Shown piece by piece: positions 20,983-22,992 of a stretch of DNA of 64,000 nucleotides (positions are counted from its first letter, which is position 1; each line of letters begins with the position of its first letter). The notes under the pieces are model-generated. The model was not told the origin of the DNA. It did not search any database and worked only from the letters and a program-made list of their open reading frames with translations. Source of the stretch: a virus. Its lineage: Duplodnaviria > Heunggongvirae > Uroviricota > Caudoviricetes. The stretch is taken from IMG/VR virus record IMGVR_UViG_3300022747_000014; one strand, given 5' to 3'. The position numbers were made by a program, and so were the translations under genes.

Positions 20983-21017
20983 TTGACTTTCCTACTTAAT
21001 AAATGTAAAATTATAAT
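20983..21017 (+). promoter_or_regulatory. sigma70-type promoter for groES-groEL
   Basis: TTGACT (20983-20988), 17 nt, TAAAAT (21006-21011). Also a perfect TATAAT at 21012-21017. Confidence 0.5.
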
Positions 21018-21036
21018 TTAACTAAAGGAGTTTATG

Positions 21037-21324
21037 ATGAAACTTACACCGCTACTTGATAGGGTGGTAGTCCGCCGTGTAGACGCTGATACCGTGACAA
21101 AGGGTGGCATCGTTATCCCAGACACAGCCGCGGAAAAAGCTGACCAAGGTACAGTCCTGGCAGTGGGTCCTGGCAAATATAATGCAGCAGGTGAACTTGT
21201 GGCATTAGGCGTTGCTGAGAACGATCGCGTTTTATTTGGCAAACTATCTGGTCAAACAGTTAAGATTGACGGAGAAGAGCTTTTAATTTTAAAAGAGGAA
21301 GATATCCTCGCTGTAATCAAATAA
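21037..21324 (+). CDS. groES: co-chaperonin GroES
   Basis: 95 aa, [15 protein letters not shown]...GGIVIP. Unmistakable GroES. RBS AAAGGAG 21024-21030. Confidence 0.9.
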
Positions 21325-21333
21325 GGAGATAAT

Positions 21334-22950
21334 ATGGCTGCAAAAGAAGTAAATTTTGGCAACGAATCACGTGCCCGCATGGTTGAAGGCGTGAACATTT
21401 TGGCCAACGCAGTTAAGGTTACACTGGGCCCAAAAGGTCGTAATGTAGTAATCGAACGTAGTTTTGGTGGCCCCGCTGTTACCAAAGACGGCGTTACTGT
21501 TGCAAAAGAAATCGAGCTTAAAGACAAGCTGCAAAACATGGGTGCACAAATGGTTAAAGAAGTAGCAAGCCGCACAGCAGACAATGCCGGTGATGGTACT
21601 ACAACTGCAACAGTATTGGCGCAGGCCATTGTTAAAGAGGGCATGAAGTACGTAACAGCAGGTCACAATCCAATGGACTTGAAGCGAGGCATTGATGAAG
21701 CCACTGCTGTCTTAGTTGACGCACTGAGCTCAATTAGCAAGCCCTGCGAAACCAATGAAGAAATCGCACAAGTTGGTACCATCAGTGCCAACGGTGATGT
21801 GGGTATTGGTAAGATGATCGCTGATGCTATGACTCGCGTTGGTAAAGAAGGTGTTATCACTGTGGAGTCCGGAAAGAGTTTGCATGACGAACTAGAAGTA
21901 GTTGAAGGCATGCAATTTGACCGTGGTTATCTTAGCCCATACTTTATCAACAACCAAGAAAAGCAAACTGTCGAATTAGACAATCCGTTTATCTTATTGT
22001 TTGACAAGAAAATTACCAATATCCGTGATATGATTCCTGTATTGGAAGCTGTCAGCAAAGCAGGTAAGCCGTTGCTTATCATTGCAGAAGATGTTGAAGG
22101 CGAAGCATTGGCTACATTGGTAGTTAACAACATGCGTGGTACTGTTAAGACCTGTGCTATCAAAGCACCGGGGTTTGGCGATCGTCGCAAAGCCATGTTG
22201 GAAGACATTGCTATCTTGACCGGTGGTCAAGTTGTTGCTGAAGAATTAGGTCTTACCTTAGACAAGGTCACTGCTGAACATTTGGGCATGGCAGGTCGTG
22301 TTGAAGTATCCAAAGAAAACACCATCATTATTGACGGTGCCGGTGATACAGCCAAGATTCAAGACCGTGTTACTGCTATTCGCACACAGGTTGAAGAAGC
22401 TACTAGCGAGTACGACAAAGAAAAGTTGCAAGAACGTGTTGCCAAGTTGGCAGGCGGCGTTGCAGTTATCAAAGTCGGTGCTGCTACCGAAGTGGAAATG
22501 AAAGAAAAGAAGGATCGCATCGACGATGCATTGCATGCTACCAAAGCTGCGGTGCAAGACGGTATTGTTCCTGGCGGCGGCGTTGCATTGATTCGCGCCA
22601 AGCAATTGGTTAACATCACTTGCGCCAATGCTGACAAGCAAGCAGGTGTAAACATTGTACTACGTGCAATCGAAGAACCATTGCGTCAAATTGTTGCCAA
22701 CGCTGGCGAAAGCGCAGACGTTGTGTTAAACAAGGTTGCAGAGGGCACTGGTAACTATGGTTACAATGCTGCAACTGAAGAATTCGGCGACATGTTAGTT
22801 GCTGGCGTTATTGATCCAACAAAGGTTGCTAAGACCGCGCTGATCAATGCTGCAAGTGTTGCAGGTCTATTGTTGACTACAGACTGTGCGATTTACGATC
22901 TACCTAAAGATCCAAACAATCCGCAACCTGGCATGCCATCAATGATGTAA
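21334..22950 (+). CDS. groL: chaperonin GroEL (60 kDa), gammaproteobacterial type
   Basis: 538 aa, near-colinear with E. coli GroEL (AAKEV.FG...[12 protein letters not shown]...GGGVALIR...GMP.MM). Confidence 0.95.
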
Positions 22951-22966
22951 GATAACACTTACTGAT

Positions 22967-22992
22967 AACCCGCTTCGGCGGGTTTTCTTTTG
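22967..22992 (+). terminator. rho-independent terminator after groEL
   Basis: AACCCGC-TTCG-GCGGGTT followed by TTCTTTT. Confidence 0.75.

Follow-up and report, generated by a model that had tools for sequence, protein, structure and literature searches.

A complete groES-groEL cassette in an uncultured phage: probable old acquisition from a Burkholderiales-type bacterium and retention as a phage-owned chaperonin

Does a complete chaperonin operon found in viral metagenomic DNA belong to the phage or to a bacterium, and, if to the phage, from which source and how long ago was it obtained? The question is raised by a groES-groEL pair in the IMG/VR record IMGVR_UViG_3300022747_000014 (Caudoviricetes), of which a stretch of 64,000 nucleotides, hereafter the window, was analyzed. 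In a preliminary description the pair had been regarded as a host-like operon recently captured from a gammaproteobacterium. We consider it probable that the locus is a functional, phage-owned groES-groEL cassette that was acquired long ago from a Burkholderiales-type source, has been kept by selection, and is expressed from phage-style signals.

The pair comprises groES (21037..21324, plus strand), encoding a co-chaperonin of 95 amino acids (aa), and groEL (21334..22950, plus strand), encoding a Group I chaperonin of 538 aa with the C-terminus ...PQPGMPSMM. The completeness of both genes, as initially described, is borne out by open reading frames (ORFs), Pfam, and PHROGs alike. GroES matches Cpn10 (PF00166; 5e-32) over positions 1-93 of the 93-position profile and the co-chaperonin GroES family phrog_3188 (1e-24), and GroEL matches Cpn60_TCP1 (PF00118; 3.6e-74) over residues 23-520 and the chaperonin GroEL family phrog_5725 (8e-182). 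The best solved-structure matches to GroEL are 8wuc and 8wu4, with 8wuc_A at the top (832 bits over residues 2-526), ahead of the Escherichia coli structure 1aon (761 bits), and GroEL is approximately three-quarters identical to a solved GroEL-GroES complex; the top structural match of GroES is 8wuc_a (105.7 bits). Both genes are preceded by the Shine-Dalgarno sequence AAGGAG on the plus strand, at 21025..21030 for groES (with AAAGGAG conserved in relatives) and at 21323..21328 for groEL, the latter overlapping the stop codon of groES. With the ATG at 21034 as start, GroES would have 96 aa; ATG 21037 is the likelier start, since AAGGAG lies 6 nt before it, only the second methionine is conserved, and public calls give 95 aa. 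The two genes are separated by 9 nt, and the gaps of 2-12 nt found in nearly all relatives indicate that groES and groEL are co-transcribed. In two-gene order, protein lengths, and domains the pair is the same as E. coli GroEL-GroES (1AON) and 8WUC/8WU4, and its GroEL is 68-77% identical to proteobacterial GroELs. The bacterial-like character noted at the outset therefore holds: this is a canonical Group I chaperonin inside proteobacterial diversity, and no remote analogue like T4 gp31.

The source suggested by the proteins is betaproteobacterial. Among the matches listed, the nearest bacterial GroELs belong to Burkholderia (77%), Cupriavidus (76%), and Polynucleobacter (75%), the GroELs of classical gammaproteobacteria (Enterobacteria, Acinetobacter, and others) are only 68-70% identical, and GroES is closest to Comamonadaceae (65-68%). 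GroES was recovered in 85 loci by local tblastn without the low-complexity filter. In neighbor-joining (NJ) trees, the window GroEL and its metagenomic relatives, which share 86-98% identity, form a monophyletic group (100/100 bootstraps) with a stem of 0.108, nested among betaproteobacteria; the sister group is purely betaproteobacterial in 86-94 of 100 replicates, the upper value being reached with Dayhoff-6 recoding. In the trimmed alignment the window GroEL is 72-75% identical to Burkholderiales, which share 78-96% among themselves and 69-79% with Gammaproteobacteria. By these identities, the distance of the phage GroEL from its nearest bacteria equals that between two proteobacterial classes. 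The gammaproteobacterial host named in the preliminary description was thus displaced by Burkholderiales, which are gammaproteobacterial only in the sense of GTDB, and the phylogeny places the phage clade on a long stem among betaproteobacteria. Polynucleobacter was considered as the sister lineage, which would name the host genus, and was rejected: its bootstrap support is 67-76% with 20 states, 42% with Dayhoff-6 recoding, and 15% in a larger tree. Since the support drops under recoding, the link may be compositional; and since it is not robust and GroES prefers Comamonadaceae, only a Burkholderiales/betaproteobacterial origin was kept.

The acquisition appears to be old. Against a phage relative with 88% identity (L004), the synonymous divergence (dS) is approximately 1.5, which is near saturation, and the ratio of nonsynonymous to synonymous divergence (dN/dS) is 0.059 for groEL and 0.127 for groES. 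The GC content at third codon positions (GC3) of groEL is 0.403, within the range of the window genes (mean 0.386 +/- 0.048), and in codon adaptation to the other window genes groEL ranks 9 of 51, so that neither measure deviates from the phage; the groEL genes of Burkholderia and Comamonadaceae have GC3 values of 0.77-0.88. Taken together, the low identity to bacteria, the fully supported clade with its long stem, the saturated synonymous sites, and the phage-like composition argue for an old acquisition followed by purifying selection, and the word "recent" in the initial account is not supported.

The expression signals proposed initially, a sigma70 promoter and an intrinsic terminator, are both present and conserved in relatives. 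The sigma70-type promoter (20983..21011, plus strand) reads TTGACT-17-TAAAAT and agrees with the consensus at 10 of 12 positions. Such a match alone is not above chance (5 found versus 4.5 expected in the 3-kb region); the form TTGACA-N17-TA(c/t)AAT is conserved 5' of groES in 18 of the 20 distinct upstream regions of relatives. The terminator (22967..22992, plus strand) consists of AACCCGC-TTCG-GCGGGTT, with a 7-bp G+C-rich stem, followed by TTCTTTT; its predicted fold (-13.9 kcal/mol, z = -4.0) was equaled in stability by none of 200 shuffled sequences, and it is conserved in relatives with compensatory changes in the stem. Bacterial groESL heat-shock operons are under sigma32 or CIRCE control, whereas the phage-encoded pair in the window has the sigma70-type promoter: no CIRCE element with up to 3 mismatches was detected anywhere in the window, and no CCCCAT-type sigma32 -10 element was found upstream of groES by reading the sequence.

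The surroundings of the pair are those of a phage. Directly 3' of groEL lie genes of phrog_8676 and of phrog_1250, the latter encoding an AAA ATPase with its best matches in jumbo phages (e.g., PA5oct, 41%), and directly 5' of the pair lies a cluster of nucleotide-sugar, glycosyltransferase, and methyltransferase genes. Elsewhere in the window are genes for a collagen-like tail fibre of 1107 aa, for additional proteins of tail fibres and tail spikes, and for a primase and two helicases, one of them of the DnaB type. Its GC content is uniformly low (about 0.37-0.51), and from 14.7 kb onward nearly all genes are on one strand. A GroEL identical to that of the window was found on nine metagenomic contigs, and more than 120 metagenomic protein clusters have 86-91% GroEL identity and come from contigs as long as 365 kb; the NCBI protein CAB5214586.1 of an "uncultured Caudovirales phage" is one of them. 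The IMG/VR relatives of the locus sit on viral contigs of 128-374 kb, and the close clade shares the gene order GT9-like gene, 253-aa ORF, groES, groEL, a few variable small ORFs, and AAA ATPase. When the 4.5-kb region was compared by megablast with 50,697 phage records, no match was obtained, which indicates that the phage lineage is absent from that collection; the nearest genuine phage match to GroEL there is Vibrio phage 2.275.O (61%). Literature searches on freshwater jumbo phages with a chaperonin and on huge phages with GroEL yielded no work specific to this lineage.

The residues examined for ATPase activity, substrate binding, and GroES binding are intact. GroEL aligns end to end with solved GroELs through the equatorial, intermediate, and apical domains. 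For the comparison of single residues, 120 clade members and 41 proteobacterial GroELs were aligned on the Salmonella sequence (E. coli numbering). All 21 nucleotide-site positions checked (T30-P33, D52, D87-T91 "GDGTTT," I150, S151, D398, G415, N479, A480, D495) are kept in the window and are identical in at least 118 of the 120 clade members. The apical binding residues Y199, Y203, F204, L237, L259, V263, and V264 are also kept, with a conservative L234I change fixed in the clade, as are the charged residues of the cavity wall and, across the 120 clade members, the allosteric residues R197, E386, D155, and R395. GroES has the mobile loop TKGGIVIPD with an I-V-I tripeptide, its roof hairpin is present with no deletion, and all 27 close relatives compared retain the mobile-loop glycine.

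The following course of events is consistent with these observations. An ancestor of abundant uncultured phages with genomes of approximately 350-375 kb would have taken groES-groEL from a Burkholderiales-type bacterium long ago, and the pair would have been inherited since then under strong purifying selection. Bacterial heat-shock control would have been swapped for phage signals, namely a sigma70-type promoter, two ribosome-binding sites, the 9-nt gap, and the terminator. Read by host sigma70 RNA polymerase, as the phage-type promoter and terminator imply, the pair would be transcribed in infection as one short unit that is not stress-induced. The products are predicted to assemble as a canonical Group I chaperonin, with GroEL rings, a heptameric GroES cap, and ATP-driven encapsulation. 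Phage proteins would gain folding capacity in this way, the most plausible clients being the major capsid protein and other virion or replication proteins of high abundance, and dependence on host GroEL/ES that may be limiting or incompatible would be reduced, by analogy with the GroEL dependence of lambda and T4 and with T4 gp31. The collagen fibres and the capsid protein suggested as substrates in the preliminary description are candidate clients.

Several points weigh against this account. All trees are NJ trees (distances computed with numpy), and the bacterial comparison set consists of the best 80 of the first 600 pattern matches, with one genome per species. The two genes do not point to the same family, GroEL leading to Burkholderiaceae/Polynucleobacter and GroES to Comamonadaceae; in a larger tree the viral sequences form one group with only 50% support; and the Burkholderiales assignment, putative as it is, derives from the phylogeny of the transferred genes. 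The co-divergence of GroEL with its neighbors is weak (Spearman 0.27 with the AAA ATPase and -0.04 with the 253-aa gene, over a GroEL range of only 79-100%), and exchange among related phages, as an alternative to strict vertical descent, may thus have occurred. The genes, their signals, their conservation, selection, phylogenetic position, and the retained residues are observed; the function during infection, the timing of expression, the oligomeric state, and the substrates are inferred.

Two features set the clade apart from its bacterial relatives and bear on how the chaperonin may work. A scan for fixed differences (columns with one state in at least 95% of the clade and a different state in at least 90% of bacteria) gave seven columns: the conservative changes V276I, V396I, and R404K, the changes E461S and S463D, and two gap columns that reflect the loss of GGM repeats. 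Position 461 is S and position 463 is D in all 120 clade members, versus E in 41/41 and S in 40/41 proteobacterial GroELs, respectively. The inter-ring motif of the window is GESADV, with R452 and V464 kept, and in effect the acidic group appears shifted by two residues along the inter-ring right site. The E461-R452 pair forms the "right site" salt bridge between the rings, present 14 times per complex, and is described as stabilizing the double ring throughout the cycle (PMC5941174); single-ring GroEL is obtained by mutating four residues, R452, E461, S463, and V464 (PMC5575113). The tail beyond P525 has 14 residues in the window, is rich in proline, and lacks GGM repeats (clade consensus DLPKDPxNPQPxMPxMM), whereas bacterial tails have approximately 21-25 residues with (GGM)n and are G/M-rich in 39 of the 40 compared, the exception being a divergent Ralstonia copy. 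These right-site and tail changes are notable as the sole radical differences from the close bacterial relatives.

How unusual they are depends on the reference. In the IMG/VR relatives (n = 80, 70-89% identity) most sequences have [ED]-S/P-x-D-[VI] at 460-464, while E461 occurs in 80 of 80 bacterial GroELs, and the GroELs of cultured phages have no GGM tails and mostly altered right-site residues. The notion of S461/D463 as exclusive to viruses was rejected, given that S/P461 is combined with D/E463 in 13 out of 125 full-length representatives from diverse GroEL clusters; GGM-type tails are found in only 21 of these 125. It is only in comparison with the nearest 81 proteobacterial GroELs that the S461/D463 swap stands out, and the right-site and tail changes are a recurrent alternative state of the family. 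They suggest, speculatively, a tuned machine; an effect of the right-site and tail changes on ring-ring coupling and on the floor and volume of the cavity is likewise a matter of speculation.

A broader reading, to which we give a minor chance, takes the chaperonin for part of a large and old virus-specific radiation from a betaproteobacterium, spread over several families of big aquatic phages that include lineages with proteostasis islands, and takes E461S/S463D with GGM loss for a possible mechanistically distinct machine. If this were true, the coupling of its rings might be altered or its cycle run on a single ring, its cavity might offer more room to large capsid proteins, or it might be insulated from host GroEL rings. 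Somewhat less likely still is that the pair has a role other than the general folding of phage structural proteins, such as takeover or rescue of host proteostasis, moonlighting, or counter-defence against chaperone sensing or depletion, or that its GroEL is a single-ring, host-independent form. The proteostasis islands of related viral lineages suggest a broad manipulation of protein quality control and not a capsid-specific helper, and the only radical fixed changes fall at the ring-ring contact and in the tail; E461-R452 is described as a stabilizer of the double ring (PMC5941174), and E461 and S463 belong to the residues altered in single-ring GroEL (PMC5575113). The pair of the window, however, has no further chaperone or protease gene as a neighbor, the salt bridge may be re-formed by D463 with the retained R452, and the S-x-D/E pattern in 13 of 125 representatives marks an ordinary alternative state of the interface.

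Recent capture of the groESL operon of a gammaproteobacterial host, as a passenger still host-like, is very improbable. It agrees with the canonical full-length proteins, the bacterial gene order, the short intergenic gap, and a GroEL identity to bacteria (68-77%) far above the approximately 26% of Pseudomonas-phage GroELs, but the best bacterial match among those listed is at 75-77% and betaproteobacterial, the phage copies form a monophyletic clade with a long stem, wide internal diversity, and saturated synonymous sites, their composition and codon usage have been ameliorated to the phage and away from the GC3 of Burkholderia and Comamonadaceae, and bacterial regulatory elements are gone while phage-type signals are conserved. 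Weakest of all is the possibility, raised with the initial description, that the window is bacterial chromosome or a mis-binned contig beside a prophage and groESL the housekeeping copy of the host: GroEL/ES is universal in bacteria, the window has tRNA and sugar-metabolism genes, and some "phage" records with GroEL are plainly bacterial contamination (e.g., Salmonella contigs), but phage genes flank the pair on both sides, with the phrog_1250 ATPase and phrog_8676 immediately downstream and tail fibres, tail spikes, DnaB, and primase further away, no bacterial housekeeping genes were seen among the ORFs scanned, the GC content is uniformly low with nearly all genes on one strand, viral contigs of 128-374 kb carry this locus too, and the GGM tail of all 39 housekeeping-type GroELs compared is absent together with sigma32/CIRCE control.

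The phage-owned cassette of old acquisition can be placed among the viral chaperonins already described. Among 2178 GenBank phage genomes, Marine et al. (2017) counted 10 with GroEL, 2 of which also had GroES, and in viromes they found groES on 133 of 337 GroEL contigs at one site, 63 of them in canonical order, with GroES>GroEL (ES>EL) and GroEL>GroES (EL>ES) operons both abundant (PMC5649160). The statement that a full pair is rare and limited to certain large phages thus stands for its first half as far as cultured phages are concerned (2/2178 in 2017; PMC5649160); in viromes the pair is common, and it also occurs in phages of 60-73 kb. The virioplankton pairs of Marine et al. (2017) resemble the pair in the window in being full Group I chaperonins with the ES>EL order among their arrangements (PMC5649160). 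Their ES>EL clades are estuarine or marine, often have a small heat-shock protein (sHSP) gene upstream, and have the mobile-loop glycine replaced by Asn or Ser (PMC5649160), whereas in the window the loop glycine is kept, no sHSP gene is adjacent, and sugar genes lie upstream. By their description, the pair in the window probably represents a different viral lineage. Ring contacts and C-terminal tails were not treated in that study (PMC5649160).

In the phage collection, 246 records match GroEL. Among cultured phages, groES stands beside groEL in Flavobacterium phage vB_FspM_immuto (160 kb), with the ES>EL order, a tail without GGM, and P461/D463, and in Bacteroides phages DAC16-23/SJC03 (167-179 kb), in which groES is unannotated. 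In Bacteroides phage DAC19 (179 kb; L172 921..1184; MT074139.1 176971..177234), an 87-aa "hypothetical protein" was recognized as Cpn10 (1.2e-21); as this ORF lies directly 5' of an unannotated GroEL, the DAC/SJC phages carry a complete but unannotated groES-groEL pair. Flavobacterium phage elemoB and a Manatee Spring podovirus (~61 kb) have the two genes adjacent in the order EL>ES, and in Cellulophaga phage phi38:1 (73 kb) one ORF separates groES and groEL. The cultured two-gene phages (immuto, DAC/SJC, phi38:1, elemoB) are lytic and have Bacteroidota hosts, and their GroELs, 37-55% identical to that of the window, have independent origins in the tree. No groES was found near groEL in Vibrio phages 2.275.O, Va1, K447, and YC or in Halocynthia phage JM-2012.

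Some jumbo phages have another arrangement. Pseudomonas phage EL gp146, OBP gp246, and Bacillus phage AR9 gp228 are GroEL-family ATPases that act without a co-chaperonin and are thought to fold phage proteins (PMC7185714, PMC9598537). They have no phage groES and show unusual oligomeric cycles, whereas the pair in the window is canonical and includes groES; the Pseudomonas-phage GroELs in the phage collection are approximately 26% identical to the window GroEL. T4 gp31 and RB49 CocO are the part of the chaperonin system that a phage supplies for folding of its capsid protein (PMC5649160). These phages encode only a GroES analogue, which has no roof hairpin and uses host GroEL; in the window both subunits are phage-encoded, and the roof hairpin of GroES is present. 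The present locus is therefore an incremental addition, since phage groES-groEL operons have already been documented in viromes and in cultured phages of 60-180 kb: the full pair is uncommon in cultured phages, yet neither new nor confined to very large ones.

What the locus adds is a whole lineage of abundant uncultured jumbo phages that would maintain a complete chaperonin of its own, which contributes to the evidence that large phages make themselves less dependent on host proteostasis. Both genes have a betaproteobacterial affinity, which suggests Burkholderiales as a host hypothesis for the lineage. The roles of the ring-ring contact and of the C-terminal tail in GroEL are still debated, and the clade may serve as a natural experiment, its GroEL being approximately 75% identical to well-studied ones with radical fixed differences only at the ring contact and the tail; the protein could be easy and informative to express and compare.

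Some records in the phage collection complicate counts of viral chaperonins. CAKLQF020000019.1, AFYI01000007.1, AGRM01000005.1, and several short "Listeria/Staphylococcus/Enterococcus phage" records have GroELs of 55-69% identity and are apparently bacterial or contaminant; AFYI01000007.1 is a 501-kb Salmonella contig with chromosomal groS-groL, and such records inflate the number of "phage" GroELs. Among distant viral GroELs (70-77% identity, IMG/VR contigs of up to 317 kb), groES-groEL lies in a conserved proteostasis island (L121 339..5027; L115, L122, L128, L140, L147), with ClpX upstream and Hsp20 and ClpS downstream; in L140 and L147, DnaK/Hsp70 stands upstream instead of ClpX, and L147 adds a gene for a ferredoxin-dependent bilin reductase.

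Further control elements were found around the cassette. The promoter of the next unit (22990..23018, plus strand; TTGACC-17-TACAAT with an upstream TG) marks the 3' boundary of the cassette; its -35 element overlaps the T-run of the terminator, and the same terminator-promoter overlap occurs in many relatives. Within the window, this overlap between a terminator T-run and a -35 element (TTGACx-17-TAxxAT) recurs at about 9804, 22990, and 33328, always on the plus strand. These recurrent junctions suggest that this arm of the genome is organized as successive short units, each insulated and read by host RNA polymerase. Matches to the strict promoter form number 14 in the window, all on the plus strand, and at least 7 of them lie within approximately 3.5 kb of non-coding DNA; the groES promoter thus belongs to a set of like promoters that are restricted to the plus strand and enriched in intergenic DNA. 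An inverted repeat (20970..20996, plus strand) overlaps the -35 element of the groES promoter and contains the perfect palindrome AGTCAATTGACT at 20978..20989. It is weak in the window (-7.0 kcal/mol, z -1.5), but a stem of 9-12 bp (-9 to -15 kcal/mol) stands at that spot in 17 of the 18 promoter-bearing relatives, and the stems co-vary (L091-L135), with at least five different sequences, among them the pairs GCGG/CCGC, GTCGGC/GCCGAC, GCCAGTG/CACTGGC, GCCAATA/TATTGGC, and GTGG/CCAC. The repeat may act as a terminator or insulator for the upstream sugar genes, as an operator, or as a structure in single-stranded DNA.

The sugar-modification cluster that adjoins groESL upstream extends over approximately 11 kb (10023..20960), and relatives have kept part of it. 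Among its members are two nucleotide-sugar epimerases (phrog_540), a gene similar to GDP-mannose dehydratases/epimerases, GT17-like and GT9-like glycosyltransferases, and methyltransferases of the FkbM and other types, and it may serve modification of the host envelope or of virion glycans.

The RNAs of the GOLLD class, known from lake metagenomes and prophages, are large and structured, and their function is unknown. A full-length member (Rfam RF02032; 207 bits at a gathering score of 150; model positions 1-416) occupies 2866..3326 on the plus strand of the window, with a tRNA-Lys(ctt) gene embedded in it at 2930..3001, within a cluster of six tRNA genes (121..4827). The phages of this lineage are presumably from freshwater, to judge from the source of the one NCBI record and from this lake-associated RNA. 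The tRNA/GOLLD region is flanked by two paralogous ORFs approximately 7 kb apart (253..1200 and 7884..8843, plus strand; 315 and 319 aa), both of which match phrog_31178, a family of unknown function.

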